Assembly (NCBI GenBank): GCA_037134915.1
Contig: JBAXLJ010000002.1
Span: forward strand, 935-64,934
Length of the DNA stretch: 64,000 nucleotides
Source of the DNA: Candidatus Falkowbacteria bacterium
GTDB taxonomy: Bacteria > Patescibacteriota > Patescibacteriia > Patescibacteriales > UBA12465
Direction: 5' to 3'
Shown here: positions 3,520 through 43,157 of the stretch, piece by piece
Position numbering within the stretch: the stretch's first letter is position 1
How the letters are laid out: every line of letters begins with the position of its first letter
Program-made: the position numbers and the translations under genes
Notes under the pieces: generated by a model
The model's input: only the letters and a program-made list of their open reading frames with translations
The model's database searches: none
What the model was told of the DNA's origin: nothing

Positions 3520-3520
3520 T

Positions 3521-3727: not shown

Positions 3728-3764
3728 TTTAAAAAAATTCTTTAACAACTTAAAAAACAAAAAA

Positions 3765-9534: not shown

Positions 9535-12168
9535 TTAGATAACACTGATAACAATTTCTTCAGTTTTACCGATTTCAATTTTTACTTTGTCACCTTCTTT
9601 AATCTTACCTTCGATAATATCTAGAGCCAGTTCATCGAGTAACATCGTTTGGATAATGCGCTTGAGCGGTCTGGCACCATAAGTTGGGTCATAACCTTTC
9701 TCAGCCAGCGTCTTCTTAACTTTGGCGCTGATTTTAAGAGTAATGTTTTTATTATGCAAACGGTTTTCCACTTTAGCCAGTTCTAAGTCGACAATATTTT
9801 CTAAGGCTTCTTTAGACAGACTTTTAAACAAGACAATTTCATCGATTCGGTTTAGAAATTCCAGTTTAAAATGATTGCGCAAAATCTTATCAATTTTTTC
9901 TTTCATCTCATCTTGGCGCCAATTATTTTTATCTTCTTGTTCGCCAGCGTTAAAACCAATGGTGTATTGTTTAATGATCTCATTGCCTAAATTAGAGGTC
10001 ATGATAATAATGGTGTTTTTGAAGTTGATGGTTCGTCCTTTAGAATCAGTGAGCCGGCCGTCATCTAAAATCTGGAGCAGCATATTAAAGGTATCGGGAT
10101 GAGCTTTTTCAATCTCATCAAATAAGACGACGGAATAAGGATGACGGCGCACCTTATCAGTTAACTGTCCGCCTTCTTCGTGTCCGATATAGCCTGGTGG
10201 GGAACCGATTAATTTAGCCACGGAATGTTTTTCCATAAACTCACTCATGTCGATTCTAATTAAAGAATTCTCATCATCAAAAATGAATCGGGCCATCGCT
10301 TTGGCTAGTTCCGTTTTACCAACGCCGGTGGGGCCAACAAACAAAAAGGAACCAATGGGTCGTTTTTCTTCATTAATGCCGGCGCGAGAACGACGAATGG
10401 CGTTGGCCACTGCTTTAATGGCTTCATTTTGACCAATTACTTCTTGGGTTAAAACGTTTTCCGCTTCACCTAATTTTTTCGCTTCCGAAGTTAACATTTT
10501 TTGCACGGGAATCCCGGTCCAACGAGCGACAACTTTAGCGACATCTTCTTCGTCAACTTCCTCTTTTAAGATTCTCTGGCCTTTCTTTTGAATCTTGGTC
10601 AGTTCGTCTTGAAATTTTTTAATATTATTTTCGAGGGTGGGAATCAAGCCGTATTTTATCTTAGCCACTTCGGTTAAGTCAGATCCTTGACGCTGGATAA
10701 TTTCCGCTTTAGTTTTTAACTCTTCAATTTCTTTTTTGGAATTTCGAATTTCCGAGATGATATTTTTTTCATTATTCCAATGCAGCTCTAATTGAGAAGA
10801 TTGTTCTTTTAGTTTAGCTAGTTCCTGATTTATGGTTCGTAGCTTGCTAGATTTTTTATCAGTGGCCACAATCGCGGCTTTATTTATCTCTAATTGTTTA
10901 ATGTTTCGTTTAAGTTGGTCGAGCTCTTCGGGCATAGAATCAATTTCCATCCGGAGCGATGAGGTCGCCTCGTCAATTAAATCAACGGCCTTGTCAGGTA
11001 AGAAACGATCACTAATATAACGGTCGGATAATTTGGCAGCGGCAATTAAAGCATCGTCAGTAATTCTAACGCCGTGGTGAACCTCATATTTTTCTTTGAG
11101 GCCACGCAACATACTGATAGTATCTTCAACGCTGGGTTCGTTAACTAAAATCGGCTGAAAACGACGTTCTAGAGCCGCGTCTTTTTCAATATATTTTTGG
11201 TATTCTTTAGTAGTCGTGGCGCCGATTGTGCGCAACTCACCGCGAGCTAAAGCCGGCTTTAACATATTAGAAGCATCCATTGAGCCTTCGCTTTGTCCAG
11301 CACCAACAAGAGTATGTAATTCATCGATGAATAGGATAATGCGGCCATTTTGTGATTTTACTTCGCGAAGCACGGCTTTTAATCGATCTTCAAATTCACC
11401 GCGAAATTTAGCCCCGGCGATTAACGCCCCTAAATCTAAGGTCACCACTTCTTTATTCTTTAAATTTTCTGGGACATCACCAGAAACAATTCGTTGGGCT
11501 AGGCCTTCGACGATGGCGGTTTTTCCGGTTCCAGGTTCACCGATCAAAACTGGATTATTCTTGGTGCGACGCAACAGTATCTGCATGATGCGACGGATTT
11601 CAGTGTCGCGACCGACCACGGGGTCAAGTTTTTCGTTGCGGGCTAGCTCCGTTAAGTTGGTGGTATATTTTTCCAAGACTTTAAATTTAGTTTCGGGGTA
11701 GGGGTCAGTGATATGGGAGTCGCCGCGTAAGTCTTTAAGAATATTTTTGACGATTTGATATTCGGCTTTGAAATTTAATAAAATATTTTGCGCCGGGGAA
11801 GGCACGCCGATCAAAGCTAAAAAAATATGTTCCGTCGAAATAAATTCGTCACCCATCCCGTCGGCTTCTTTTTGGGCCCGTTCTAAAATAATCGCCGTTT
11901 CACTGGTCCCAGAAACAGCCTGAATCGGACCGTCTTGCGGCTTAACCTTAATCTTGGGTAATTTATTAATCTCGGTTACGACGTAATTTTCAATTAAGTC
12001 TGGATCAATTTTTATTTTTTCTAGTAAGGGTTTTATCAGTCCCTCGTTTTGTTGTAATAAGGCGAGTAAGATGTGCACGGCTTCAATATTTGCCTGTCCG
12101 TTAGCCGCCGCAATCATTTGCGCACCAATAATTGCTTCTTGGGATTTATCTGTGAATTTATTGAACAT
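9535..12168 (-). CDS. clpB: ATP-dependent chaperone ClpB
   Basis: Clp_N repeats. NBD1 has [15 protein letters not shown] and [15 protein letters not shown] long coiled-coil middle domain is present. NBD2 has [13 protein letters not shown] and [11 protein letters not shown]. Length is 877 aa. Confidence 0.95.
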
Positions 12169-25244: not shown

Positions 25245-25949
25245 ATGAAAAAGTCATCATACATTTGGGGCGGGGCGATTTTTCTGCTAATCGTAATTGC
25301 CGGGTTATTTATTATTAAAGCTAGCTGGCAAAAAAATCCGGATAAGGCTAATACAGATTTGGGTAATGCGGTTAAAGCCGAAAGTTTTGCGCCCACCAAT
25401 TCGCCGACTATTTCGGCTGATGAAAAGATTATCGGTTCCATTTCAGCTCCGATAAAAGTTTTGGTTTACGAGGACTATTCCAATTCTTTTTCTGCGGATG
25501 CGGCAGATTCGATTAAAAAATTAGAAACCGATTTTGGCGATAAATTAGTAATCGCTTTTAGACCCTATGCCACACGAGAGAAGCCGGCCTCAATTGAAGC
25601 AGCTATGGCCGTGGAATGTGCGGCTGACCAAGAGAAGTGGTCTCAGATGCGCGAAGCTATTTTAAAGGATGTTAAAAATAGCAGCTTAAACAGCGATCAA
25701 ATTAAGGCGGACGCTACGGCCATTGGTCTTGATCAAGCCATTTTTGGCAAGTGCTTGACCGATGTCGAAAAACAAGGAATAATGTTACAGGTAGCCACGG
25801 ATGCGAAGCAGTTTTCCGTCTACGGGGCGCCGACTATCTTTGTTAATAACGAATTAGTGGTTGGTGCTAGACCCTATGAAGATTATTTAGATGAGTTCGG
25901 AGCTAAAGTTGAAGGTCTAAAAAGTTTAGTTACTAGACAAATAAAATAA
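25245..25949 (+). CDS. DsbA/thioredoxin-like fold protein lacking the CxxC active site
   Basis: N-terminal TM anchor. The APIKVLVYEDYSNSFSA segment aligns to the usual ..EF.DFQCPFCA region, with the CPFC positions reading NSFS. Confidence 0.55.
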   Translation: MKKSSYIWGGAIFLLIVIAGLFIIKASWQKNPDKANTDLGNAVKAESFAPTNSPTISADEKIIGSISAPIKVLVYEDYSNSFSADAADSIKKLETDFGDKLVIAFRPYATREKPASIEAAMAVECAADQEKWSQMREAILKDVKNSSLNSDQIKADATAIGLDQAIFGKCLTDVEKQGIMLQVATDAKQFSVYGAPTIFVNNELVVGARPYEDYLDEFGAKVEGLKSLVTRQIK

Positions 25950-25970
25950 GATGAGGCCTCGGCCTCTATT

Positions 25971-26055
25971 GGAGAGCTCGCATAGTGGTCGAGTGCGCAC
26001 GCTTGGAAAGCGTGTATACCGCAAGGTATCAAGGGTTCGAATCCCTTGCTCTCCG
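25971..26055 (+). tRNA. tRNA-Ser (anticodon GGA)
   Basis: Hand-folded cloverleaf: acceptor ggagagc/gctctcc, D stem gcat/gtgc, anticodon stem cacgc/gcgtg, loop ttGGAaa, 16-nt variable arm (atacc/ggtat), T arm aaggg-ttcgaat-ccctt, discriminator G. CCA is not encoded. Confidence 0.9.
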
Positions 26056-26092
26056 CAGATACGAAAAAGCAGTTTTAATTAGCTGCTTTTTT
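26043..26092 (+). repeat. Island repeat copy R0 (tRNA 3' end core ctctccgcagat plus hairpin-terminator)
   Basis: cccttgctctccgcagatacgaaaaagcag-ttttaatta-gctgctttttt. The core and hairpin are nearly duplicated at 27996-28043. Confidence 0.8.
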
Positions 26093-26204
26093 GTCATATA
26101 TAAGCCTAAATATTGAGTTCCAAAGTAGTTCGAACTTTTTCTTAAAATTGTCTATTTTTATCATTATTCCATTATTAATTAGCTTACTTTACACAAAATA
26201 GCTT

Positions 26205-26225
26205 GGTTCGAAATCCCTAACTCCC
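26205..26225 (+). repeat. tRNA T-arm/acceptor-like fragment
   Basis: ggttcgaaatccctaactccc compared with the tRNA's gggttcgaatcccttgctctcc, 150 nt downstream of the intact tRNA. Confidence 0.55.
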
Positions 26226-26235
26226 TAAAATTTAA

Positions 26236-26264
26236 TTGACAATAAATAAAATATGTGATATAGT
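26236..26264 (+). promoter_or_regulatory. Near-consensus promoter (TTGACA-N17-TATAGT with an extended -10 TG)
   Basis: TTGACA at 26236-41, a 17-nt spacer ending in tgtga, TATAGT at 26259-64. Confidence 0.7.
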
Positions 26265-26519
26265 CTATTTGTAAATTTAATTCGCGTTTTTAGCAATCAA
26301 AAGCACATTTGTATATAGCTTACGGAGTACAGTTGGGTTGTATAAACCTATACAAAGAGAATTTTATTTAACACGGTAGACTGATAAGGCCAGAAATTTG
26401 ATGGATTGCTCATCTTTTTTCTATAAGGCGAACGATTTTTTATTCGACTCCAGTTACGGAAGTAACCTAAGAAAGAATAGAAAATCGTTAACTTGCTGAT
26501 CAAACAAAAAAGGCAAGTT

Positions 26520-26774
26520 ATGAAAAACATTGAATGTACATTAATTCAGGTCAAAAAAACTTTTAATGAGAACGCTGATACTTTAGCAATAAATTATTGT
26601 CAGCAAAATGATTTGATTCCAACATTGGTTAAGATAAGCTTGAAAACAATGGAATTTGTATTTGAAGATTATTGGAATGATGATTGGATTATAAGAGTGC
26701 TCACTAATTTTTTTACTGGACTTGGCGGAGTGGATGTGTTGTGGAATAATAAAACATTCACAACTATTTACTAA
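26520..26774 (+). CDS. Hypothetical protein (84 aa), first island cassette
   Basis: ATG at 26520 preceded by aaaaagg. The track's TTG start at 26493 is less likely. No motif recognised. Confidence 0.5.
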   Translation: MKNIECTLIQVKKTFNENADTLAINYCQQNDLIPTLVKISLKTMEFVFEDYWNDDWIIRVLTNFFTGLGGVDVLWNNKTFTTIY

Positions 26775-26781
26775 AGTAATT

Positions 26782-26811
26782 AAGCTTATCTGTAACGGGT
26801 AAGCTTTTTTA
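26782..26811 (+). terminator. Terminator after the 84-aa ORF
   Basis: aagctta / taagctt stem followed by TTTTT. Confidence 0.65.
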
Positions 26812-26849
26812 ATTTTCATTGGCATTTTCATAAATCTCAGTGTGAATAG

Positions 26850-26902
26850 CGTTCCTTACTCCCCGCAGATTGTAAATAGCCCTGGAATAGGGGCTATTTT
26901 TT
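26850..26902 (+). repeat. Island repeat copy R1 (short form)
   Basis: cgttccttactccccgcagattgtaaatagccc-tggaatag-gggctatttttt. Confidence 0.7.
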
Positions 26903-26960
26903 GTAGGGAGAATTGAACTTTGAAACGAGTGGTGCTAATATTAAAATAAATAATAAAAAT

Positions 26961-27434
26961 ATGCAAAAATTATTATCAGATGAAGAATATTTTAGCAATC
27001 TCCCCAAAAAACATATTGGGGCCGGCGTTTTAATATTCAATAAAAGTAACCAGCTTTTAATAGTAAAGCCTAATTATAAAGAAGGATGGTCAATACCAGG
27101 TGGTGGTGTAGATACAGATGAGTCTCCCGAGGCAGCGGCAATCAGAGAGACTAAAGAAGAGATTAGTTTGGATTTGGAAAATATAACCCTGATTTGTATT
27201 GAATATACTTTAAAAAGAGGAATAAAACCGGAGACTCTGCAATTTATTTTTTATGGAGGGGAATTGGATGCAAATGAAATAAATAAGATTTCCTTGGACA
27301 AAAACGAGCACAGCGAATTCAAATTTGTTGATATCTCCGAAGCCACAAATCTGCTTAATGAAAGGCATCAATATATAATACCATTTTGTATTGAGGCAAT
27401 TAAAAATAAGACCACTGCTTATATAGAATTATAG
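26961..27434 (+). CDS. NUDIX hydrolase (island cassette)
   Basis: Nudix box GGGVDTDESPEAAAIRETKEEISL. I prefer the ATG at 26961 (MQKLLSDEEYF) over the track's TTG at 26913. Confidence 0.8.
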   Translation: MQKLLSDEEYFSNLPKKHIGAGVLIFNKSNQLLIVKPNYKEGWSIPGGGVDTDESPEAAAIRETKEEISLDLENITLICIEYTLKRGIKPETLQFIFYGGELDANEINKISLDKNEHSEFKFVDISEATNLLNERHQYIIPFCIEAIKNKTTAYIEL

Positions 27435-27461
27435 ATATTTAGACGATTCAATCAGTATAGT

Positions 27462-27524
27462 CGTTCCAACTACGTCCCACTTTCCCCGCAGTTTGTAAAT
27501 AGCCATATTTATGGCTATTTTTTT
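27462..27524 (+). repeat. Island repeat copy R2
   Basis: cgttccaactacgtcccactttccccgcagtttgtaaatagccat-attt-atggctattttttt. Confidence 0.8.
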
Positions 27525-27571
27525 GGTGGAGAGTTTATTGCTTTGGAACGATATGCTATAATTTATTGCAT

Positions 27572-27976
27572 ATGAAATTAACGGAATCAATAAAAAAGGA
27601 TTTAAATACAGAACAAATAGATTCTCTCATGGATTCAGTGGGCTGGACTGATCATAAAGGAGAAAAAAAATGGCGGGAGATTTTAAGCAAATCGTCTTTT
27701 GTTTATAGTATTTATGATGGAAAAAAAATGGTCGGTTTTGGCAGAATTTTAGAAGATGGGGCAATGTGTATGTTTTATGATATTGTGGTTCACTCGGATT
27801 ATCAGGGCAAAGGAATAGGCAAAATGATAATGAATAATTTGTTAGATTTTGTTAAAGATAAAAACTATATTTCAGTTAGCTTATTCGCTTGGCCAAAAAA
27901 TAAAGACTTTTTATTACCTTTTTACAAAAAATTTGGTTTCGAGTTATTTGAAACAGGGATGAGACTTAAGAAATAA
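27572..27976 (+). CDS. GNAT-family N-acetyltransferase (island cassette)
   Basis: Motif A is VVHSDYQGKGIGKMIMNNLLDFV. The ATG at 27572 lies 9 nt after a TATAAT box (27557-62), so the mRNA is nearly leaderless. Confidence 0.8.
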   Translation: MKLTESIKKDLNTEQIDSLMDSVGWTDHKGEKKWREILSKSSFVYSIYDGKKMVGFGRILEDGAMCMFYDIVVHSDYQGKGIGKMIMNNLLDFVKDKNYISVSLFAWPKNKDFLLPFYKKFGFELFETGMRLKK

Positions 27977-27977
27977 T

Positions 27978-28043
27978 CGTTCCAACTACATCCTATTCTC
28001 TCCGCAGATAGGAAAAAGTAGCTTATATAGGCTACTTTTTTTG
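27978..28043 (+). repeat. Island repeat copy R3 (closest copy of the tRNA 3' end plus hairpin)
   Basis: cgttccaactacatcctattctctccgcagataggaaaaagtagc-ttatatag-gctactttttttg. It starts 1 nt after the GNAT stop codon. Confidence 0.8.
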
Positions 28044-28238
28044 TTTATTTTTGGTAAATATTTTGAGTTCTAAAGCGGTTTGGATATTTTTAGAGAGAGC
28101 GTGACGGTTTTTGATAAAATGACTTATTTATATCTATTTTTAGATAAAATTTGTTAGTTCGAACCTGATTAAAAATAGGTTTCTTTTGAACTTTTATTGT
28201 GATATATTATTAGTATAAATTAAGGTTAAATATTTTGT

Positions 28239-29384
28239 ATGAAAAATATTCCAACAGAGTTTAAGCAACCATTTGTCCCAGAAAGCGAGGGTAATCCTGA
28301 AAAATTGGATAAAAATTTTTCTAATCTTAATGTTTTTAAAGAAGAAGTTGCAAGTGGTGAAGAAATAATCGAAATAGTAAAAATGAAAATTGATGATAAG
28401 AATAAACTTTCTCAGGTAAGAGAAGATTTAGGCTTAGAAATAGATAAAGATATTCAGATTCAGATGTATATTGATGCATTGCCAAAAAATAAAGATTATA
28501 TAGATTTTAGTAAATTACAAAAAATTGGTAGCGGGGGCACTCATGATGTTTTTATTGATCCAAATAATCCAAATTTTGTAATCAAATTAAATAGAAATGC
28601 CCTAGAAAAAGCTAGTAGTTTAAGCCAGTCGGATTGGTCAGACGAAACACAGAAAAAAGTTAATGAATATGTAGAAGGGGAGAATGATAAAAATAAGCAA
28701 CTATATAAATTTTTTGGCGTAGAAAATTGTTTAAGTGAAAAGGTGATGATGGCAAAAATAAATATAGAACATAACAATGAATCACAAAATATTAACGGTG
28801 TGATTTCAATCCAGGAAACAAGTGATGTTTTTAAAAATCCTACAAAAAAAGATTTTAGTATAGGGTACGTTGAAAAAGGTGAACTGTTTAAAGAAAATAA
28901 GGATGTTTATGATGATATGAATAGGGCTCTTTTCGGTAGTGCTGATTTTAGTGAAGAAGATGTTTTGTTATTTAATGAAAAATTGAAGCCAATTTTTGAG
29001 CTTGTAGATACTGACCAAAAATTTGCTGACAGTATGAGAGAATTCTTAGTTAGATTCAAAGATTACTTTGAAGCATCTGGGCACTTCATTGATTTAGTTG
29101 GCGAGGAAAATGTTTTATTTTATCAAAAAGATGGTAATTGGTCTTTTAAACTAGGTAGTGTAATTAAGCAAGAAACAAAACAAGGAATGGAAACCGCCCT
29201 AGATTCTCTAAGGGGGAATCCGGACACTTTAAATCAGGACGAATCTTTACGTAACCAACTAATTAATCAATTAGCTGTATCGAGATTGTTGAATGCGGCT
29301 GGGATAAAAGTTGGCATTGGTAAAGTCGTTGATATTGAGTTATCAGAAAAACAGTTAGAAAATTTAGATAAAGTAAAATTTTAG
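28239..29384 (+). CDS. Hypothetical protein with protein-kinase-like motifs (atypical)
   Basis: IGSGGTHDVF (Gly-rich loop-like), FVIKLNR (VAIK-like Lys), HFIDLVGEENVLF (HxD....N catalytic-loop-like). The motif order fits a kinase fold. No search was done. Confidence 0.35.
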   Translation: MKNIPTEFKQPFVPESEGNPEKLDKNFSNLNVFKEEVASGEEIIEIVKMKIDDKNKLSQVREDLGLEIDKDIQIQMYIDALPKNKDYIDFSKLQKIGSGGTHDVFIDPNNPNFVIKLNRNALEKASSLSQSDWSDETQKKVNEYVEGENDKNKQLYKFFGVENCLSEKVMMAKINIEHNNESQNINGVISIQETSDVFKNPTKKDFSIGYVEKGELFKENKDVYDDMNRALFGSADFSEEDVLLFNEKLKPIFELVDTDQKFADSMREFLVRFKDYFEASGHFIDLVGEENVLFYQKDGNWSFKLGSVIKQETKQGMETALDSLRGNPDTLNQDESLRNQLINQLAVSRLLNAAGIKVGIGKVVDIELSEKQLENLDKVKF

Positions 29385-29512
29385 AAATAATTTAAAATTA
29401 GCGTAAGGCATCTTTGTTTTGGGTTAATTATTACTAGACATAATTATTTTACCTGAACTTAGGTGTCTTTTGTATTAAATTAAGCTTGGGACCAGAATGT
29501 AGGCACTATAGA

Positions 29513-29541
29513 TTGACGTAAGTGTATTAATATAGTATTAT
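29513..29541 (+). promoter_or_regulatory. Island promoter module copy (TTGACG-N17-TATTAT)
   Basis: gattgacgtaagtgtattaatatagtattat, homologous to the modules at 31440 and 33602. Followed by the ttgtt..aactttaaaaattaaa leader and a strong SD (aggagg) for the next ORF. Confidence 0.6.
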
Positions 29542-29605
29542 TCCTTGTTGCGAAAGAACTTTAAAAATTAAATATTAGTATAAATATAATACAGGAGGCG
29601 TCGTC

Positions 29606-30946
29606 ATGAAAAAGGCCAATGAATTAGATGATAATCTTACTAAAATTAATCCTTTGAATTATGAAAAATTGCAGTTAATGAATTTTTCACTTCAGGATTT
29701 TCAGGCAGCAGTAGCTAGCGGTACTTTAAATGATTTACAGGTATTAAATGCTATGGAAATTATTTATAGCGTTAAGGGCTCATCTCAAAAGTATAAAGTC
29801 AGGGTTAATTATAAAAATGATCCTAGAATATTACAGTCTACAACAAAGGGGTCTATTTTTTTGGAATCTGAAAAGAAAAATATTTACATCGCTAATCCCA
29901 ATTGCGCTTTTTTCACTATAGAAGAAAAAAGTAGCACGGGGTGGAGTGTCGTGGTCGAAAGTATTTTGACGATTAATCAGGATTTACATATCAACGTTGC
30001 GAAACTGATTAAAAATGAAGAAACAATCGAAAATATTTTATCAACTAAAGATACTTATCAGAAGGCGGAAAAATTTTTGTTCTGCGTTAGTATTAATGTT
30101 TTGCCTGTAATGAGAAACAAAATTAATTTAGTCGAAACAATGTACAAAGACTTTTTTAATAAATATATTGCATTTCAAAACAAGAATTCAACAGAAATAG
30201 TACTTAATAGTTCTAATCTGATTATTGGTTCTATTCTTGCCAATATTCATTTTGGAGAAAAACGAAGCAATACTTATTTACCTATTTCGTTGATTAGTTG
30301 CTCAAGAAGGCAAAAATCATTTATCTACGTGCTAGATTTAATCAAAGTTAGTGAAAATAAAAGTATATCCGAGTATAAGGTTAGCCAGGATATTTTTAAT
30401 TTCAAAAAAAGTTCAGAGAAAGGCGGCGGGGTTCAATCTTTACTGGGCACTGATATATCAGCTATACCGGTAATAGAAAAAATGGCATATCCTGATGATA
30501 TGCATGAGGGCATGGCCGAACTTCAGAATTATATTTTTGCGAGTGCTATAAATAACAAAATTAATAATTTTCCCAACTTATCGTTAAAATATATCGATGC
30601 TGAAGGCAAGATGGCGGGGTATTTTATTTCTTATCAAGGAGTGCGTCAAGGTGTTAAAATTGTTTATATAGAGAACCTGGCAGTTGACCCTAAAAATAAA
30701 ATTGCTGCTGGCAGAATAATTAACCGCTTCATTGAAAAATATCTGGCAGAATATACAGATAAAGGAAACCCCCTGCCTATATATATTCAGTCTCGTGAAG
30801 AGACTACTTATTTCATGATGCAAAAACAATTTGATAAATTGAGAGATAAGTATGGTGTTAATTTTAGTGTTGAAGAGGTTAATAAATATAGATTTGGTAG
30901 TTCGATTATGTACTCGCAATTAATAACCCCTTATTTGACAGATTGA
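29606..30946 (+). CDS. Hypothetical protein with a C-terminal GNAT-like acetyltransferase domain
   Basis: Strong RBS acaggaggcgtcgtcATG. The C-terminal IVYIENLAVDPKNKIAAGRIINRFIEKY resembles GNAT beta4-alpha3 (motif A). The ~330-aa N-terminal part is unrecognised. Confidence 0.45.
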   Translation: MKKANELDDNLTKINPLNYEKLQLMNFSLQDFQAAVASGTLNDLQVLNAMEIIYSVKGSSQKYKVRVNYKNDPRILQSTTKGSIFLESEKKNIYIANPNCAFFTIEEKSSTGWSVVVESILTINQDLHINVAKLIKNEETIENILSTKDTYQKAEKFLFCVSINVLPVMRNKINLVETMYKDFFNKYIAFQNKNSTEIVLNSSNLIIGSILANIHFGEKRSNTYLPISLISCSRRQKSFIYVLDLIKVSENKSISEYKVSQDIFNFKKSSEKGGGVQSLLGTDISAIPVIEKMAYPDDMHEGMAELQNYIFASAINNKINNFPNLSLKYIDAEGKMAGYFISYQGVRQGVKIVYIENLAVDPKNKIAAGRIINRFIEKYLAEYTDKGNPLPIYIQSREETTYFMMQKQFDKLRDKYGVNFSVEEVNKYRFGSSIMYSQLITPYLTD

Positions 30947-31012
30947 TACGATTTAGATTATAATTGTTTCGCGTTATTTTAAGTGTTTAATTTAATTTTA
31001 AAGGAGGTTAAG

Positions 31013-31237
31013 ATGAAAAAGTTTGAATTTCCAGTGGATGATTCGCAGTTTATAAAAGCTAGCGGATCGATGAAATCAAATGGCGGCGGCGGAGGAGACA
31101 TTTGCGTTTTGGTCGCTAAAACAGAACTTGGCGTGGCCGTGCGTGACTCGAAAGATCCTGATAAGGAAACGTTGTATTTTACAACTCAGGAGTTTGATGT
31201 TTTCAAAACAGCCGTTAAAGCAGGCGAGTTCGACTAA
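31013..31237 (+). CDS. DUF397 domain protein
   Basis: FIKASGS...GGGGDICVLVA...GVAVRDSKDPDKETLYFTTQEFDVFKTAVKAGEFD matches the DUF397 pattern W.KSS.S...CVEVA...VAVRDSKDP....L.F....W..F...VK.GEFD. RBS is aaggagg with ATG at 31013. The track's GTG/TTG-type start at 30983 is rejected. Confidence 0.75.
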   Translation: MKKFEFPVDDSQFIKASGSMKSNGGGGGDICVLVAKTELGVAVRDSKDPDKETLYFTTQEFDVFKTAVKAGEFD

Positions 31238-31261
31238 TGTGACTAAAAAGTCAGCAACTTA

Positions 31262-31286
31262 AAGCAGGAATCTTTCCTGCTTTTTT
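31262..31286 (+). terminator. Terminator after the DUF397 gene
   Basis: aagcagga / tcctgctt stem plus a T-run. Confidence 0.8.
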
Positions 31287-31407
31287 ATTTAGAAGAACAG
31301 TTCCAGTTAACCTAATGTAACAAACCAAAACGAAGATTAATTTATGATTTAGCAAAATCGGCAATCTTAAAAGGTAAATTAAAGATATTTAAATTTTTAT
31401 TGAATAA

Positions 31408-31470
31408 CTGCTCCAACTACGTCCCGCTCTCCCTGTGTATTGACAAGAGCATGCTAATATAGTATACTTT
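31408..31470 (+). repeat. Island repeat copy R4 (core plus promoter module TTGACA-N17-TATACT)
   Basis: ctgctccaactacgtcccgctctccctgtgtattgacaagagcatgctaatatagtatacttt. TTGACA at 31440-45, TATACT at 31463-68. Confidence 0.75.
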
Positions 31471-31503
31471 ATTGTTACTTTAAAACTAAATATTAATTAA
31501 AAA

Positions 31504-31728
31504 ATGGGGGACCCAAAGATGACTTCAAAAAGACCATTTCATGAAACCGTTGTGGATGTTATTAATCGATGTCCTAAAGACAATCTTGCAATTTTGCTTG
31601 AACTTCTAGTAAACACTAAAGTTCCTTCTAATAAGGATGCAATTGTCAATGCGTTAGAAAATAAAAAGGGCGACCAAGATAAAGATAATAATGCCTTGGA
31701 TTACGCAATTAAATGCATTTTAGATTAA
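31504..31728 (+). CDS. Hypothetical small protein (74 aa; alternative start 31519)
   Basis: An ORF between repeat R4 and a clean terminator. No motif recognised. Confidence 0.45.
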   Translation: MGDPKMTSKRPFHETVVDVINRCPKDNLAILLELLVNTKVPSNKDAIVNALENKKGDQDKDNNALDYAIKCILD

Positions 31729-31731
31729 ATT

Positions 31732-31759
31732 AAAACCTTTCTTTCAGAAAGGTTTTTTT
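31732..31759 (+). terminator. Terminator after the 74-aa ORF
   Basis: aaaaccttt / aaaggtttt perfect stem plus a T-run. Confidence 0.8.
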
Positions 31760-31793
31760 ATAGCTTAATAACATTTTAAACTATAACCATTAA

Positions 31794-31858
31794 CTATTCC
31801 AACTACGTCCCATTCTCCACGCAGATTGTCAAAATAGCATTAAATGTGCTATTTTTTG
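31794..31858 (+). repeat. Island repeat copy R5
   Basis: ctattccaactacgtcccattctccacgcagattgtcaaaatagca-ttaaatg-tgctattttttg. Confidence 0.8.
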
Positions 31859-31861
31859 TAT

Positions 31862-32401
31862 ATGAATGTTTTATTAAACAACCAAAAAATCAATTTTAAT
31901 TCCAATGACTTTCCAATGTTAATCTCTGGAACCGAGAAGACTGGCTCGTCGTTTTTCAGTGTTTGTTTGTTAGCTGAATTGTTAAAAAATGGATATAAAG
32001 TGTTATTCCTTTCCGCTTATCCAATGGCAAAAGAGGAATTTAGAAAGCAGATAGGCGGTGAATTTGAAAATGCGGTAATTATTGAATCCGGTGAAGAAAG
32101 TGATTTGATAAAGGCGATTAAAGGTCTTACGGATCTAGAAGAACGTCTAGTTTTAATAAAAAATATCGATGTATATAGCCATAAAATATTTGATGTCTTA
32201 AAAAACTTGCAGTTGGTTATTTTTTCAGGCGATTTAGATAAGTGTAAGTTTGCTAGCAGTTTGATTGATAAAACTTTTCCAACTAAAATATTTTTTTCAT
32301 CATCTGAGAAAGATAGACACGTCATAGCGCCAAGTTTGGCAAAATTTTGTGGAGAAGTAGTTAGCAAAAAATATGGTGGTGTAATTAGTCTGGGTATTTA
32401 G
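31862..32401 (+). CDS. Hypothetical protein, RecA/KaiC-like P-loop fold with a degenerate Walker A
   Basis: LISGTEKTGSSFFSVCLLAELLKNGYKVLFLS resembles the KaiC/RadA-type i.G.pGtGKT.f..q.....g.kvlyis pattern, but the conserved Lys is missing. Weak, pattern-based call. Confidence 0.3.
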   Translation: MNVLLNNQKINFNSNDFPMLISGTEKTGSSFFSVCLLAELLKNGYKVLFLSAYPMAKEEFRKQIGGEFENAVIIESGEESDLIKAIKGLTDLEERLVLIKNIDVYSHKIFDVLKNLQLVIFSGDLDKCKFASSLIDKTFPTKIFFSSSEKDRHVIAPSLAKFCGEVVSKKYGGVISLGI

Positions 32402-32428
32402 GTAAATAATTATTTTTTATAATTAAAG

Positions 32429-32486
32429 CTGCAACTAGGTCGCTACCTTTTTTAAAGGACCTCAATAATTGTAATAGTATAAAATT
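32429..32486 (+). repeat. Degenerate island repeat copy (R5b)
   Basis: ctgcaactaggtcgctacc resembles ctgctccaactacgtcccgctctcc with gaps. It is followed by attgtaatagtataaaatt, a degraded promoter module. Confidence 0.3.
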
Positions 32487-32488
32487 AT

Positions 32489-33538
32489 ATGGAAGGAAGA
32501 ACGCACTATGAAAAAATAATCGGTGGCACATCAGAAGATAAAGAAATAGCTTCTGGGGAGCTTCAAACTGCCTTTGAAGAGCAGGATACAAGGTTGGCCG
32601 AGTATGAAATTAAGAAGAGCCCGGAAGACTTAGAGATTATTAAAAAAACAGAATCTCTTGTTGATAAATTTGTTTTAAAATACGGGGGCGATCCAAAACC
32701 ACTTCCAGCTGATAATATTTATATTCTTAAGCCTGATAGTGTTTTAGAAATTAGCCATGGCAAAATTTCTGGTGGTATTTTTAAACCACTAGTGTTAAAA
32801 ATTGGCGTTGAACAACAAAAATCAAAATTGTTATTTGTAAGTATTCTGGCTCACGAGTTATTTCATTTAAAATCTTATAAATCTGCCCGTTTTGGTCAAT
32901 CTAATGAAGATATTCGTCTTTATCGTAGCGGACTCTCCATGATTGACCTCAAGAACCAAAGTGAAGAAGGGGGTGAAGAGAAGCGTTATTTTGATGATCT
33001 GGAAGAAGCTATTGTCGCAGAATGCACAAAAAAAATTGTAGACGAAATCAGTAAAGATGAAGAGTTTAGGGAAGAAATGAAAGCGGTCGTAAAACTTCGT
33101 GATTGGCATTCTGCTTATTATGGAATATCGAGCGAAGAAGCAATAGGATCTGGAAGCGAAATAAAATATATTGTAAACCCCCAAGATAAGGTTGCGGATG
33201 TTCTTGCATTCTCTGATAACGAAGAAAGCCGGCAAGCTTATGCTGCCGGCATGATAGACTATGCTTATGAAGAAGGGGACGCTGAAATAGTTGAAAGACA
33301 AAGAGAAAGAGAAAAATTATATAAACTTTTAGATAATCTAATAACCGGTTCTGGGGGAAAATTAAAAAATCGCGAGGAAGTTTTTGATGAATTCGCAAGA
33401 GCTAATTTCTCCGGTAATTATTTGCCTCTGGCGCGAATGGTCGAAGATATTCTGGGTAAAGGATCATTTAGAAAATTGGCGGAAGAATTTAGTAATGAAT
33501 CAAGTAAGGAGGACGATGAAAATTTGCCAGATAATTAA
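32489..33538 (+). CDS. Hypothetical protein with an HExxH zinc-metallopeptidase motif (ImmA/IrrE-like context)
   Basis: FVSILAHELFHLKSY is the only HExxH motif. The C-terminal tail is acidic. Confidence 0.4.
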   Translation: MEGRTHYEKIIGGTSEDKEIASGELQTAFEEQDTRLAEYEIKKSPEDLEIIKKTESLVDKFVLKYGGDPKPLPADNIYILKPDSVLEISHGKISGGIFKPLVLKIGVEQQKSKLLFVSILAHELFHLKSYKSARFGQSNEDIRLYRSGLSMIDLKNQSEEGGEEKRYFDDLEEAIVAECTKKIVDEISKDEEFREEMKAVVKLRDWHSAYYGISSEEAIGSGSEIKYIVNPQDKVADVLAFSDNEESRQAYAAGMIDYAYEEGDAEIVERQREREKLYKLLDNLITGSGGKLKNREEVFDEFARANFSGNYLPLARMVEDILGKGSFRKLAEEFSNESSKEDDENLPDN

Positions 33539-33562
33539 TTTTTAATTTCATTTACATTTTTA

Positions 33563-33636
33563 CAAGTTCCAATTTAAACAAAGCCTCTAGTTCTCCACTG
33601 ATTGACAAAAGCATACTAATATAGTATGCTTTTTTG
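33563..33636 (+). repeat. Island repeat copy R6 (diverged core plus promoter module TTGACA-N17-TATGCT with a perfect hairpin)
   Basis: caagttccaatttaaacaaagcctctagttctccactgattgacaaaagcatact-aatat-agtatgcttttttg. TTGACA at 33602-07, TATGCT at 33625-30. Confidence 0.7.
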
Positions 33637-33665
33637 TTATATTTAGAACCTTAAAAATTAAAGTC

Positions 33666-34130
33666 ATGACAAATGTGATGTGCCAAGCAAAAGACAAAAT
33701 GGTAACAAGCTACTTTGTTGCCAAGTTAGTAAAAAGGATTTTCTGGTTTCTGCTACCCGTATGTTTAATTCTAGGGATTACAATTATTACGACCACCTCG
33801 GGACTTAGTGTGGTAAATTTATTTATCACTGGACTAGCGACTATTGGTTTAAGTCAGTTTTTGTCAGAGCTTATTTCGAGGCTGGTTATAATTAATAGAA
33901 TTAGTTCAGCTGACGGTCAGGATGTTGCGTCTATTTATTTCAAGATAAAGAGAGAGTTGGAGGAAATGGAGAAAGAAAAAAATGATCTTGAAACAGAATG
34001 CCCCGAAAAGACTCTTTTTTTCCCAGCTTATATAGATAATCTATCAAGGACTGACCCCAGAAAGAGGCTCGCTAAGATAAAAACAAAGATCCTGCTTGCT
34101 AGAACAGAGCTAAATTTATTTAGCTACTAG
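33666..34130 (+). CDS. Membrane protein with a C-terminal coiled-coil-like segment, hypothetical
   Basis: Two hydrophobic helices (FWFLLPVCLILGITIITT, VVNLFITGLATIGLSQFL) followed by the charged KRELEEMEKEKNDLE segment. Confidence 0.45.
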   Translation: MTNVMCQAKDKMVTSYFVAKLVKRIFWFLLPVCLILGITIITTTSGLSVVNLFITGLATIGLSQFLSELISRLVIINRISSADGQDVASIYFKIKRELEEMEKEKNDLETECPEKTLFFPAYIDNLSRTDPRKRLAKIKTKILLARTELNLFSY

Positions 34131-34169
34131 TGAATCGGTAAAAAGTAGTTTGAAAAACTCTTAACTAAG

Positions 34170-34198
34170 AAGGTGTCCATTTAATGAGCACCTTTTTT
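34170..34198 (+). terminator. Terminator at the right end of the island
   Basis: aaggtg / cacctt stem plus TTTTTT. Confidence 0.65.
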
Positions 34199-34277
34199 AT
34201 TTTGACTTTAATTGCTAATTATGATTAAATTAATGAAATTAAAGGTATCTTCAATAATTTAAATAAAGCCTATATAT

Positions 34278-36755
34278 ATGGAATTTAAACCAGAAGAATT
34301 CGAGAAAAAGTGGCAAGAAAAATGGGAGAGCTTGCACCTTTATCGCGCCGATGATAATTCTACCGCGCCTAGGTGTTTTGTCGTGGATATGTTTCCGTAT
34401 CCGTCTGGCAGCTCCATGCACGTCGGTCATCCCCGGGGTTATGTGGCCACCGATGTTTACAGTCGTTTTAAGAGGATGAGCGGATTTAATGTTCTACATC
34501 CGATGGGTTGGGATGCTTTTGGCTTACCAGCTGAAGAAACGGCTATCTTAAACAAGGAATATCCTACGGTGACCGTTAATCGCAACATCGATAAATTTAA
34601 ATTGCAGCTGACTATGTTGGGCTTGGGCTATGATTGGTCTCGAGAGATAAATACCACTGATCCAAAATACTATATTCAAACACAGAGAATCTTTTTAGAA
34701 TTTTTCAAAAGAGGCTTGGCGCAGAATAAGACGGTGGCGGTTAACTGGTGTCCTGAATTAGGTACGGTTTTGGCTAACGAAGACATCGTTGATGGTAAAA
34801 GTGAACGCGGTGGTTATCCGGTTTATCAACAACCCATGCGCCAATGGATTTTGGCTATTACTCAGTATGCCGATCGCTTAGTCGATGACTTGGAACTGCT
34901 ACCTCATTGGCCGGAAAAAATAAAAACCGCTCAACGTAATTGGATTGGCCGCAGTGAGGGGCATGAATTTGAATTTGTGACTACTGCCGGTATTAATGTT
35001 CCAGTCTTTACTACTCGACTGGAGACTCTTCCTGGCGCGACTTTTTTAGTCTTGGCTCCAGACAGTGAAATTACTAAAAAGATTATTCCCTCAGCCGCTA
35101 ACTTAGCTGAAATTAAAAATTACATTGAAATCAGTGGTCAAAAAACCGACTTAGATAAACAGTTGTCCAATGAAAAAACGGGAGTAATTATTGAAGGTGT
35201 TACCGCCACTAATTCATTTAGTAACACCCAAATACCAATTGTGATTGCTGATTATGTCCTGTCTTCTTATGGAACGGGGGCTATTATGGCAGTTCCGGCT
35301 CACGATGAGCGTGATGCTGAAATGGCTCAAGTTTTAAAGTTGCCAGTAGTGACTGTGGTTGAGGCTGATAAAATGATTAACGCTGGTTCTCTTAGTGGTG
35401 AGACTATTTTAGAAGCTCGTCAAAAAGTTTCAAAGATGATAAATGCCACATCTCAAAAAAGATTTAAAATTCGTGATTGGGTTTTTTCTAGGCAGAGATT
35501 TTGGGGGGAACCATTTCCTATTGTTTGGGTTGAAGGCCAAGATAACTATGAATTAATTGCCAAGAGTCCGGTTGGAAAATGGTTACCGAAAGAACCGGTG
35601 TCTTATTCTAATGAAGCAGTCGAATATTTTGCCGTTCCGGTATTACCAGAATTTTTAAGTGCCATGCGTTTACCTCAAGTGGAGTCATATCAAGCCACGG
35701 GCACTTTGGAAGGACCCCTAGCTGGTATTAGCGAGTGGGTTAATACTTTTATAAATACTGAGACTGGTGAAGTATCAAATGAATCGCGTGGTGAAAATTG
35801 GATCCCGGCGCTTAGAGAAACTAACACGATGCCACAATGGGCCGGGTCTTCCTGGTATTGGTTGCGTTATATGGACCCCACAAATGAGACGGCTCCTTTT
35901 TCAAAAGAGTCATCTAAGTATTGGGGCCCCGTAAATGTTTACGCCGGCGCTGACCACGCAGTCGCTCATCTTATTTACGCTCGTTTTTGGCACAAGATGA
36001 TGCAAGACGCTGGTATGGTTGATTTTCCAGAACCTTTTGAGAGATTAGAGTTTTTAGGTTACATTTTAGCTGCCGATGGCACTAAGATTTCTAAGAGAAA
36101 AGGTAACAGCCGCAGTCCCGAAGATATTGTTAAAGAGGTTGGGGCTGACGCTTTCCGTTTATACGAAACATTTATTGGTCCCTTTGAAAAACCAATTCCT
36201 TGGAGTGATAATGGACTTATCGGTTGCAGGCGTTTTCTGGAGAAGATTTGGCGTTTGGCGGAAACAGTTATCGAAGCTAAGGCTGAAGTCTCTGACCCCG
36301 CGGCGGCCTCGTCGATTAATAAGACGATCCAAAAAGTGGGACAGGACATTGAGACTTTTAAATTCAACACCGCCGTTTCTAGCATGATGATTTGCTTAAA
36401 TGAAATTCAGAAGAGTGTTGTTAGTATCGCTGATTTTAAATCCTATCTGGCTTTACTGGCACCTTTTGCTCCGCATATGGCTGAAGAAATTTGGTCGATG
36501 TCAAAAGCCGAAGGTTCTATTCATCTTTCTTCTTGGCCTAAAGTTGACGCTAAAATGATTAATGATAACGAGGTGACTGTAGCCATTCAAATTAATGGTA
36601 AACATCGCTCAAATATTATGGCCTCTAGAGATGCCGACGAAGCAACCATTAGGGGACTAGTTCTAAATGATGACGCGGTTAAGAAGTATTTAGCCGGAAG
36701 CGAACTCAAAAAGTTTATTTATGTTCCCGGAAAAATTGTTAGTCTCATAATTTAA
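34278..36755 (+). CDS. leuS: Leucine--tRNA ligase
   Basis: PYPSGSSMHVGHPRGY (HIGH motif), KISKRKGN (KMSKS motif), and a typical LeuRS N terminus EKKWQEKWE. 825 aa. Confidence 0.95.
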   Translation: MEFKPEEFEKKWQEKWESLHLYRADDNSTAPRCFVVDMFPYPSGSSMHVGHPRGYVATDVYSRFKRMSGFNVLHPMGWDAFGLPAEETAILNKEYPTVTVNRNIDKFKLQLTMLGLGYDWSREINTTDPKYYIQTQRIFLEFFKRGLAQNKTVAVNWCPELGTVLANEDIVDGKSERGGYPVYQQPMRQWILAITQYADRLVDDLELLPHWPEKIKTAQRNWIGRSEGHEFEFVTTAGINVPVFTTRLETLPGATFLVLAPDSEITKKIIPSAANLAEIKNYIEISGQKTDLDKQLSNEKTGVIIEGVTATNSFSNTQIPIVIADYVLSSYGTGAIMAVPAHDERDAEMAQVLKLPVVTVVEADKMINAGSLSGETILEARQKVSKMINATSQKRFKIRDWVFSRQRFWGEPFPIVWVEGQDNYELIAKSPVGKWLPKEPVSYSNEAVEYFAVPVLPEFLSAMRLPQVESYQATGTLEGPLAGISEWVNTFINTETGEVSNESRGENWIPALRETNTMPQWAGSSWYWLRYMDPTNETAPFSKESSKYWGPVNVYAGADHAVAHLIYARFWHKMMQDAGMVDFPEPFERLEFLGYILAADGTKISKRKGNSRSPEDIVKEVGADAFRLYETFIGPFEKPIPWSDNGLIGCRRFLEKIWRLAETVIEAKAEVSDPAAASSINKTIQKVGQDIETFKFNTAVSSMMICLNEIQKSVVSIADFKSYLALLAPFAPHMAEEIWSMSKAEGSIHLSSWPKVDAKMINDNEVTVAIQINGKHRSNIMASRDADEATIRGLVLNDDAVKKYLAGSELKKFIYVPGKIVSLII

Positions 36756-36822: not shown

Positions 36823-37494
36823 ATGAATTTTACTGACAACCAAGATTTATATTTAGGGCTATCAACCAAGAAAGACGGGCCAATGAAAAATTCCTTAGAG
36901 AATCGTCTTTTATTTTTCAAAAATAATAATTTAGACACTAAAATTATAGTCTCAGCTGGCTTAGTTCATCAAAACAAAGTGATTTCAGTTGATGATGTGT
37001 TCGGAAGCCAAATTATTCCCGGTTGTGATGCTTTAATTACTAACAACCCGCGACACTTATTAACTGTCACGGTTTCTGATTGTGTCCCAATTTATTTTTA
37101 TGATTCAAATAAAAAAGTAGTAGCTCTGGCACATGCCGGTTGGCGAGGCGTGATTTCTGAAATTGCCAAAGAAGTCGTTAATAAATTTATTACCAATTAT
37201 CAATCTAAACCCGGCGATATTGAAGTTTTTGTCGGCCCTCACATTAAAGAGTGTCATTTTGAGGTTAAAGCCGACGTCGCCAGTCAATTTAAAGTTTCTG
37301 ATTTGGTGTTAAGAGACGAAAAAATATACATTAATCTGGCACAGGTGATTAAAAATCAATTATTTGATTTAGGAGTGGTAAATGTTAAAGTTAGCCCAGA
37401 TTGCACTTATTGCTGCTTAGACAAATATTTCTCTTATCGTCGGGATAAGTCTTTGGAGCTTAAAACGATGATGGCTTATCTAGGCTTAAAGTAG
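36823..37494 (+). CDS. pgeF: YfiH/PgeF-family (polyphenol oxidase-like, peptidoglycan editing factor) protein
   Basis: DCVPI, HAGWRG and the C-terminal CTYC...FSYRRD motifs. Confidence 0.8.
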   Translation: MNFTDNQDLYLGLSTKKDGPMKNSLENRLLFFKNNNLDTKIIVSAGLVHQNKVISVDDVFGSQIIPGCDALITNNPRHLLTVTVSDCVPIYFYDSNKKVVALAHAGWRGVISEIAKEVVNKFITNYQSKPGDIEVFVGPHIKECHFEVKADVASQFKVSDLVLRDEKIYINLAQVIKNQLFDLGVVNVKVSPDCTYCCLDKYFSYRRDKSLELKTMMAYLGLK

Positions 37495-43081: not shown

Positions 43082-43157
43082 TTTATATTATAAATATTAA
43101 AATTTGTTAGTTTTTTTATATTTTTATTTTATGTTAAAAGCTTGTAATCTATTTTTT

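Follow-up and report, generated by a model that had tools for sequence, protein, structure and literature searches.

Gene cassette arrays anchored at tRNA-Ser genes in a Candidatus Falkowbacteria genome and in related metagenomic loci

Several described systems gather small accessory units at a defined site. Integrons hold long one-directional arrays of short cassettes, mostly with a single open reading frame (ORF) and with very diverse cargo; the recombination site lies at the 3' end of the cassette, the cassette boundary falls inside that site, the head of the array is fixed, and cassettes are common to different arrays and genomes. Xer-dependent modules, namely integrative mobile elements exploiting Xer (IMEX) at dif and the pdif modules of Acinetobacter plasmids, are small recombinase-less cargo units with short conserved sites that are served by a host recombinase, sometimes serially. 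The palindrome-associated transposable elements (PATEs) of the IS200/IS605 group are mobilised in trans, insert 3' of a specific sequence without duplicating it, have a hairpin near the left end and are strand-specific. Finally, tRNA-targeting islands, such as the Prochlorococcus tycheposons (10.1101/2020.12.28.424599) and Islander-type islands (PMC4383910), insert in the 3' part of a tRNA gene, regenerate the tRNA and leave a displaced 3' fragment of it at the far end, where it forms a direct repeat; with each further insertion older units shift downstream, and the content of the islands is accessory. Here, we describe a locus that resembles each of these systems in part. It lies in a stretch of 64,000 nucleotides from a Candidatus Falkowbacteria bacterium (assembly GCA_037134915.1, contig JBAXLJ010000002.1, positions 935 to 64,934), which is called the window below and in which position 1 is the first letter. 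An island at 26057-~34200 of the window is an array of at least six to seven cassettes, with at least six junctions, on a tRNA-Ser(GGA) gene. The evidence throughout is comparative and computational.

Functionally, this array and its counterparts in other genomes are closest to integrons, including sedentary chromosomal integrons and clusters of attC sites lacking integron integrases (CALINs), and share with them the features listed above, but they fail the defining tests. In integrons the gene intI, for a tyrosine recombinase with the IntI-specific insertion, is adjacent to the array, whereas here no intI was found and the primary site is the tRNA-Ser 3' end instead of attI. The attC site is conserved in structure (imperfect palindromes of 57-141 nt), whereas the site found here is 35 nt long and conserved in sequence; no attC pair of the form RYYYAAC-N(35-125)-GTTRRRY (R''/R') is present on either strand of 25901-34300. 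Integron cassettes are mostly promoterless and depend on a common promoter, Pc, whereas the cassettes described here carry their own promoter-like site and terminator hairpin, and several arrays can be found per genome, at different tRNA-Ser genes.

The remaining systems are more distant. The tRNA-targeting islands bring their own tyrosine integrase, often with replication or packaging genes, and span kilobases to tens of kilobases, whereas the units of the arrays are single genes without an integrase, the site contains a strongly conserved half that is not derived from a tRNA, and all three tRNA-Ser isoacceptor genes seen (GGA, TGA and GCT) are targets. From general knowledge and inspection of the motif consensus, Xer modules differ in that dif is a 28-nt site with two 11-nt inverted arms and a 6-nt spacer, whereas the consensus AAAACCGTTCCAACTACGTCCCACTCTCCCCGC has no such dyad, and the array sites are all direct and tied to tRNA-Ser instead of dif. 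In comparison with the IS200/IS605 PATEs, whose conserved subterminal hairpins are recognised by a Y1 TnpA of the genome, the array hairpins are variable and terminator-like, the target, part of a tRNA, is much longer, and no TnpA was found in the sampled DNA. A full-text literature search returned no earlier description of such arrays, in the candidate phyla radiation (CPR; also called Patescibacteria) or elsewhere, which is an absence of evidence and not a proof of novelty. The CPR comprise a large share of bacterial diversity and have tiny genomes with few recognised mobile elements, and the way in which they acquire accessory genes is poorly understood.

The junction motif and its link to tRNA-Ser

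The island extends from tRNA-Ser(GGA), the sole tRNA of the window, to the leucyl-tRNA synthetase gene (LeuRS; start 34278), and its GC content is low (~0.31 vs ~0.40), recovering at 34 kb. This LeuRS has 100% identity to a protein assigned to a 'Candidatus Falkowbacteria bacterium' metagenome-assembled genome, its next matches come from Patescibacteria, and the genes of the window as a whole are in line with CPR. A copy of one motif, four of them strong and two degenerate, stands between nearly all of its genes. The consensus is (T)AAAACCGTTCCAACTACGTCCCACTCTCCCCGC/A, in which the slash marks the junction here and below, and the information content collapses straight after CCGCA. One stretch inside the motif is polymorphic (CTCTCC, CTCTCT or CCCTCT). 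The last ~15 nt of the motif copy the 3' end of tRNA-Ser (the 3' strand of the T-stem, the 3' strand of the acceptor stem and the discriminator). In the window, the YCCGCAGWT core is found at 26052, 26862, 27485 and 28001 and also at 31818, with degenerate versions at 31432 and ~33592, and a repeat finder reported a longer unit, TCCAACTACRTCC...TCTCC(C)CGCAGAT, at 27465, 27981, 31412 and 31798 and a shortened copy at 26842. In agreement with this, a profile that was built from foreign copies gave four nhmmer matches in the 64 kb, all of them in the island (E 1e-10 to 2e-5).

Because the last 15 nt of a common variant of the motif, TCCCACTCTCTCCGC, are identical to the 3' end of tRNA-Ser(TGA) at one of the related loci (L015; loci are given by L numbers), the motif reads as a conserved non-tRNA half, AAAACCGTTCCAACTACG, followed by the 3' end of a tRNA-Ser. 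The non-tRNA half is loosely T-loop-like (GTTCCAA vs GTTCGAA). The possibility that the motif is the 3' half of a tRNA, with a T-arm, was considered and rejected, as the CGT/ACG mini-stem is lost in the variants CATCG, GTGCG and GTTCG and no Rfam match was obtained.

A scan of metagenome contigs with TCCAACTACRTCCYNYTYTCY yielded 81 loci; once chance matches in GC-rich coding DNA had been removed and a looser search had been made, 97 motif copies (83 unique) were counted in 48 loci from about 20 assemblies, the taxonomic spread of these loci being judged from synteny at few of them only. The motif is near-identical in genomes whose GatA is just 55-64% identical to that of the window. In a scan of viral sequences, the single match (L005) lay inside a coding region and was set aside as chance. 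The layout of the arrays is a motif, one ORF on the same strand and the next motif, as in L065 with nine motifs in 9 kb or L060 with seven. The cassettes that are bounded by two motifs (44 unique) range from 384 to 3921 bp with a median of 849 bp; exactly one ORF (≥50 aa) is present in 37 of the 44, 50 of the 53 ORFs point the same way as the motif, and a median of 26 nt separates stop codon and motif. The cargo is diverse: the 287 ORFs of the family loci form 220 clusters, among them Nudix, GNAT, several methyltransferases, RhuM, KilA-N, HAD, EamA, signal peptidase and an ice-binding-like protein, and the genes that recur beside arrays encode peptide deformylase, SDR, Fic and membrane proteins. 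Three separate motif-bearing places are present on each of two contigs (149 and 157 kb), and a 276-kb contig carries an array as well. An accessory peptide deformylase (174-179 aa) stands repeatedly right after a motif with a type-B leader (described below), at L055 9640-10164 and L019 1583-2122 (motif-oriented coordinates) and in L080 and L081; extra genes for this enzyme are described in one source as often lying in mobile elements (PMC12690207), which the array copies echo.

When 47 family loci were analysed with ARAGORN, tRNAs were predicted in 11, and all 11 had a tRNA-Ser (five GGA, four TGA and two GCT); the only other tRNA seen was a tRNA-Arg on the opposite strand in L055/L077. The array is located downstream of the tRNA-Ser and co-oriented with it in 10 of these 11 loci (11 of 12 with the window), the exception being L015, whose single motif copy is found ~7.7 kb upstream of the tRNA-Ser. 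Moreover, the same leader is found after a true tRNA end and after a motif. In L014, tRNA-Ser(TGA)...CTCTCCGC/AGATTGAAATAGCCCTGAAATAGGGGCTATTTTTGATAGGGAGAATTGAACTTTGGAACG... continues into a leader with ~90% identity to window 26868ff, the sequence behind the motif at 26849-26867; the junctions read tRNA-Ser(TGA)/AGATTGAAATAGCCC... in L014 and motif/AGATTGTAAATAGCCC... in the window.

The order GatA-DsbA-tRNA-Ser is kept in L001-L004, L021, L022, L048 and L072, and a DsbA scan of the genome collection found four relatives with GatA-DsbA-tRNA-Ser(GGA). The contigs of L001, L003 and L004 end 1-512 nt past tRNA-Ser(GGA), where the tRNA end could be located, and in about a quarter of the family loci (e.g. 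L015, L020, L021, L027, L047 and L078) a motif copy lies within ~150 nt of a contig end. The arrays seem to be systematic break points of assembly, probably as a result of differences between co-existing strains. In L002, an extra ORF of ~145 aa (10727-11160) separates DsbA from tRNA-Ser, whose sequence is in part masked by N.

Comparison of the flanks of all junctions with each other placed breakpoints at the motif. Four junction pairs share the upstream flank only, with similarity that stops right after ...CCGCA, and five share the downstream flank only, with similarity that begins at the motif. A 274-aa cassette is bounded by motifs in L022, L029 and L084 and has three different combinations of neighbours. 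The GNAT protein of window cassette 3, from a tRNA-Ser(GGA) array, has a 73%-identical homologue in L055/L081, just past the last recognised motif of an array that lies downstream of tRNA-Ser(GCT). At the GatA-DsbA-tRNA-Ser(GGA) position that the window array occupies, L072, L022, L048 and L021 have arrays whose cassettes gave no clear match to those of the window, only a weak match of the Nudix domain in L072 (34% over 80 aa). The expectation of an earlier reading of the window (the original prediction) that relatives would carry its segments independently was thus confirmed at the grain of single genes, the contents differing at the same tRNA-Ser.

Leaders and cassettes of the window

The original prediction had singled out two diverged copies of a ~200-bp module, at 26043-26270 and 27990-28215, as the left ends of two tandem elements (26056-28000 and 28000-34200) that had each integrated at the tRNA 3' end and regenerated it, or alternatively as products of a segmental duplication. 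The two copies themselves were borne out. All strings quoted for them were found in place, and the four blocks that they share (Table 1) are colinear, with order and spacing kept at offsets of 1949, 1950, 1951 and 1944 nt. Their global alignment scored 112, compared with 39.0±7.3 for 500 dinucleotide shuffles, which is far above random expectation (z = 10.0, 0/500). Most of this signal comes from the proximal 88 nt (the tRNA-end-like core, the hairpin and TAAATATTGAGTTCCAAAG; z = 12.7), and the distal 140 nt aligned alone are weak (z = 1.85, 24/500 shuffles). In the relative L087, whose LeuRS is 84% identical, two further copies were located at 3894-4090 and 4898-5100, with z = 6.3 and 8.6 against the window copy and z = 4.2 for distal against distal part; for control leaders of the same window island, five values fell between -1.1 and +1.0 and the sixth was 2.9. 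Because the L087 copies have the same block order (hairpin, AAGTTCCAAAGnnGTTCGAAC, ~60 nt, TTGGTTCGAATCC, promoter), the distal blocks are, as judged from their sequence, homologous and not chance resemblances.

The module is one of several types of cassette 5' leader, type A, and is common to cassettes 1 and 4, so its two copies represent junction 0 (tRNA/cassette 1) and junction 3 (motif/cassette 4). A division of the island into two elements was not supported, as the junction motif also separates the 84-aa, Nudix and GNAT ORFs from each other, the distal part is cut again after cassettes 4 and 5 and probably after cassette 6 (Table 1), and no integrase was found in any element. What remains of the proposed integration is insertion at the tRNA-Ser 3' end and the copy of the tRNA end that was left downstream. 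A local segmental duplication is unlikely, given that the hairpin stems of the two window modules differ by compensatory changes (6 pairs altered on both sides) and that homologous leaders occur in another genome.

In L087 (region 3475-5100), the type-A leader follows two other tRNA-3'-like ends. One, GGTTCGAATCCGACCCTGGGAGCCA at ~3868-3893, resembles the 3' end of a tRNA-Asn with encoded CCA and lies beside an HTH_17 (excisionase-like) gene, and the second, TTCATCCACGACCCCGAGCA, is at ~4878-4897. Sister versions of the cassette system may be aimed at other tRNAs.

In general, leaders start with a hairpin followed by a T-run, which was found within 70 nt of the junction in 74 of 80 unique leaders, and promoter-like sites then follow; in individual cassettes these sites, which are sequence matches only, agree with up to 11-12 of 12 consensus positions. 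Ahead of the motif, many cassettes have a terminator of their own as well. The type-B leader, AGATTGTAAATAGCCC..GGGCTATTTTT..GGGAG..CTTTGGAACG..TGnTAtAAT, stands ahead of ORFs from at least 10 different protein clusters and is seen behind two genuine tRNA-Ser ends as well; it is therefore a standard part of cassettes and not inherited with one gene. At type-B junctions, motif and leader together form an imperfect palindrome of ~95 nt (CGTTCCAA/TTGGAACG, CTCTCC/GGAGAG and a central hairpin), and the example at window 27458-27552 (95 nt) folds as single-stranded DNA with z = -4.7. A universal attC-like palindrome was considered and rejected, since the GGAGAG and TTGGAAC boxes are present in only ~15-20% of leaders, all of one leader family. 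The string GTTCCAAAG or its complement CTTTGGAAC is enriched in leaders, with 19 of 37 occurrences in 7% of the sequence, a value that is inflated by shared ancestry.

In a third leader type, TTGACA is positioned right after the junction and a palindrome lies between -35 and -10 (window 29512, 31439 and 33601). This TTGACA-17-TATnnT module, whose spacer is a perfect palindrome (e.g. AAAAGCATACTAATATAGTATGCTTTT), occupies 29512-29550, 31439-31477 and 33601-33639; it looks both promoter-like and terminator-like, and the window copies come right after junctions. In L087, copies at 8799, 12855 and 16739 have no 35-nt motif, and one of them is located ~375 nt past LeuRS. The repeat at 29512 may be the trace of a decayed junction inside cassette 4.

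Among the cassettes of the window, the 84-aa ORF of cassette 1 had no family match in Pfam, NCBIfam or PADLOC. In cassette 4, the 381-aa ORF is kinase-like, with a weak match to YrbL, and the 446-aa ORF has a GNAT-like C-terminal stretch by reading of its sequence and matched no family in Pfam, PADLOC or NCBIfam. Cassette 4 is either a multi-gene unit or several fused cassettes with decayed junctions, and both multi-gene cassettes, 4 and 6, may be such fusions. No recognisable motif follows cassette 7, so that the distal end of the array is unmarked ahead of LeuRS. Synteny beyond LeuRS is not kept in the relatives L087, L090 and L091, and the far boundary of the array is therefore not fixed. 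A Cu-oxidase_4/YfiH-type gene at 36823-37494 is outside the array, after LeuRS; a 66%-identical homologue in L073 (2293-2970) has a motif 21 nt past its stop codon and is a cassette or an array neighbour there.

Table 1. Coordinates of the array, its cassettes and the shared blocks of the type-A leaders in the window
Feature	Position	Strand	Description and support
tRNA-Ser(GGA), array anchor	25971-26056	+	3' end ...ATCCCTTGCTCTCCGC/A is the first junction; ARAGORN; Rfam tRNA 55.4 bits
Leader type A, copy 1	26057-26270	+	terminator-like hairpin 26064-26092; box GAGTTCCAAAGTAGTTCGAAC 26115-26135; tRNA-end-like GGTTCGAAATCCC 26205-26217; promoter-like TTGACA-17-TATAGT 26236-26264
Cassette 1	26057-26867	+	leader A, 84-aa ORF (26520-26774), own terminator (26782-26806)
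Cassette 1 3' motif, degenerate	26849-26867	+	GCGTTCCTTACTCCCCGCA
Cassette 2	26868-27491	+	leader type B, Nudix ORF (26961-27434); NUDIX E=1.2e-20
Cassette 2 leader B			hairpin ~26876-26896, GGGAGA, CTTTGAAACG, -10 TAATAT
Cassette 2 3' motif	27456-27491	+	nhmmer E=1.2e-10
Cassette 3	27492-28008	+	leader type B, GNAT ORF (27572-27976); GNAT E=7e-14
Cassette 3 3' motif	27971-28008	+	nhmmer E=1.4e-8
Leader type A, copy 2	28009-28238	+	hairpin 28011-28042; box GAGTTCTAAAGCGGTTTGGAT 28064-28084; TAGTTCGAACC 28155-28165; TTGTGATATATT 28198-28209
Cassette 4	28009-31438	+	ORFs of 381 aa and 446 aa, 74-aa DUF397 protein; terminator 31261-31283
Cassette 4 3' motif	31403-31438	+	degenerate 3' end CTCCCTGTG; nhmmer E=2.2e-5 (match 31403-31433)
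Cassette 5	31439-31825	+	promoter TTGACA-17-TATACT (31440-31468), 74-aa ORF (31504-31728), terminator 31732-31756
Cassette 5 3' motif	31792-31825	+	nhmmer E=2.4e-8
Cassette 6	31826-33598	+	hairpin leader, 179-aa ORF (31862-32401), 349-aa ORF with HExxH (32489-33538)
Cassette 6 3' motif, probable, decayed	~33565-33598	+	GTTCCAA...TTCTCCACTGA; by eye and alignment, missed by nhmmer
Cassette 7 (last)	33599-34200	+	promoter with palindrome (33602-33630), 154-aa membrane ORF (33666-34130), terminator-like hairpin ~34170-34200
Type-A block 1	26050-26092 / 27999-28043		CTCTCCGCAGATA.GAAAAAG, hairpin and T-run
Type-A block 2	26109-26125 / 28057-28076		TAAATATT(TT)GAGTTCYAAAG
Type-A block 3	26206 / 28157		GTTCGAA
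Type-A block 4	26255 / 28199		TGTGATATA

A possible mechanism and its alternatives

We consider it reasonably probable that the arrays are an integron-like cassette platform at tRNA-Ser that is served by a site-specific recombinase encoded elsewhere. This reading brings together the cassette anatomy, the restriction to tRNA-Ser, the spread over many genomes, the reuse of cassettes and the fact that no linked recombinase was found. Given the last point, the enzyme would have to act in trans, with its gene on a helper element or at another place in the genome, and would most likely be a tyrosine recombinase; excision and integration would proceed through a circular intermediate. The site carried by a cassette would recombine with any tRNA-Ser 3' end or with a site already in an array, with the crossover at or just before ...CTCYCCGC/A, inside the shared ...TCCCAYTCTCYCCGC/A or at its edge. 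The tRNA would be left intact, the hairpin of the incoming cassette would serve as its new terminator, and the cassette would bring its own promoter. The incoming tRNA mimic, placed before the old terminator, would provide a new target, and in this way arrays would grow and shuffle.

No recombinase or transposase was found in the 64-kb window, where Pfam took in 49 of the 50 called ORFs and only the recombinase motif and phmmer scans took in the remaining one (2073 aa, 43104-49325), and no protein of the island is recombinase-like according to Pfam, NCBIfam and PADLOC. Inovirus-like prophage genes are located a few kb from motifs at L050 793-6581 and L074 1102-3326 (motif-oriented coordinates); they encode a Zot-type ATPase, a LexA/S24-like repressor, a 594-aa adsorption-like protein, small ORFs and an HUH rolling-circle Rep (HYHMIFF), and could reflect coincident integration hot spots or hint at a helper element. 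At the other end of the window, a 510-aa reverse transcriptase (RVT_1, E=1.3e-10; 3765-5297) is encoded right after a 1128-aa surface-type protein with Big_12/PKD repeats (region 49-5297). This layout is suggestive of a diversity-generating retroelement; no pair of template and variable repeats was found for the reverse transcriptase, only the repeats of the Ig domains.

Several points weigh against a recombinase-served platform. A six-frame translation of ~350 kb of related loci contained no recombinase, as searched with regular expressions for the catalytic motifs of tyrosine and serine recombinases and with phmmer, for which seven approximate reference sequences of XerD, Cre, IntI1, lambda Int, gamma-delta resolvase and IS200/IS608 TnpA were the queries. 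No excised circle, circular contig or pair of empty and filled sites came to light. Universal conservation is limited to the left side of the putative crossover, an unusual feature in comparison with classical double-strand core sites, in which two inverted arms bind the recombinase, and the crossover can be placed no more closely than inside the shared ~15 nt or at their edge. Near LeuRS of the close relative L087, there is no copy of the 35-nt motif. Finally, parts of the array may be fixed, as indicated by the two degenerate copies (26849 and 33565) and the degenerate possible junctions inside cassette 4.

In a bolder form, which we put forward tentatively and rate as possible rather than probable, the CPR/Patescibacteria would have a 'tRNA-Ser integron' of their own, in which an array-unlinked recombinase, possibly of a new or repurposed family, inserts single-gene cassettes equipped with promoter and terminator at the 3' end of every tRNA-Ser gene and recognises a 35-nt mimic of tRNA-Ser, which may serve as a folded bipartite site (motif and leader). 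Horizontal gene flow in these ultra-small bacteria would then have a major route that has so far escaped notice. There is a substantial chance that the arrays will count as a distinct system once the enzyme is known.

Cassettes could also be exchanged without a dedicated recombinase, by homologous recombination after DNA uptake, with the tRNA-Ser gene and the 35-nt motifs as homology anchors. CPR bacteria are thought to be naturally competent, the identity between motifs is sufficient for short-homology recombination, no recombinase was found nearby, and breakpoints at the motif fit homology-anchored exchange as well. Nevertheless, we regard this as unlikely. It leaves unexplained how the tRNA-Ser mimic was first acquired, why the non-tRNA half AAAACCGTTCCAACTACG is so strongly conserved, why leaders start exactly after ...CCGC/A at three tRNA-Ser isoacceptors and why tRNA-Ser is used exclusively; in addition, 35 nt is near the lower limit for efficient RecA-dependent exchange.

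In a second alternative, single-strand transposition (HUH/Y1, similar to IS200/IS605 PATEs) or a folded-site, attC-like reaction would place units 3' of the tRNA-Ser end without target duplication, with a hairpin as the left end and a target-like cleavage site as the right end. The geometry fits, with the target, ~6-12 nt and a hairpin on one side of the cargo and (hairpin), ~20 nt and a target-like terminus on the other. The hairpins that begin most leaders, the placement of all cassettes on one strand and the palindromic type-B junctions described above are also in line with it. However, the hairpin sequences are not conserved and always come with a T-run, which makes them terminator-like, and the extended palindrome is found in only ~15% of junctions and has the junction in its middle, unlike attC, where it is at the end. 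With no Y1 transposase or Rep linked to the arrays, except for the inovirus-type Rep in L074, we give this mechanism a low probability.

Two or a few conventional integrase-driven elements in tandem at the tRNA-Ser 3' end, with the extra copies of the tRNA end as debris, would be in keeping with the well-known build-up of elements in tandem at tRNA genes, where partial tRNAs are displaced, as in tycheposons (10.1101/2020.12.28.424599), and the tRNA-end-like repeats are real. This is nonetheless very doubtful for the loci analysed here, as there is no integrase gene or fragment in the island or in the 48 related loci, the units are single genes (median 849 bp), and the non-tRNA half of the motif is kept in 83 unique copies across distant genomes, which would not be expected of debris. 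Least credible is a role of the motif in cis, as an RNA or regulatory element (for instance an operator, or a tRNA-like signal for 3' processing or stability), and not as a mobility site: its position shortly past the stop codon of ORFs (median 26 nt) and the recurrence of GTTCCAA-type boxes in leaders, at times between -35 and -10, would suit such a role, but many cassettes have a terminator ahead of the motif, which would then often stay untranscribed, there is no 5' partner for an acceptor/T minihelix and no Rfam match, and neither the anchoring at tRNA-Ser nor the shuffling of cassettes would be explained.

Implications for ultra-small bacteria

If the arrays are indeed a cassette platform at tRNA-Ser served by a recombinase in trans, a conserved and searchable 35-nt site would mark hundreds of interchangeable, self-expressed cassettes and give access to a catalogue of mobile accessory genes. 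The platform would provide a mechanism for strain-level variability and would explain why contigs of metagenome-assembled genomes recurrently break after tRNA-Ser. Once the recombinase is found, tRNA-Ser and the cassette format would offer a landing pad and a vehicle for engineering these organisms. In a wider context, the arrays would be a second, independent solution to the problem that integrons solve, and would inform the evolution of cassette platforms.

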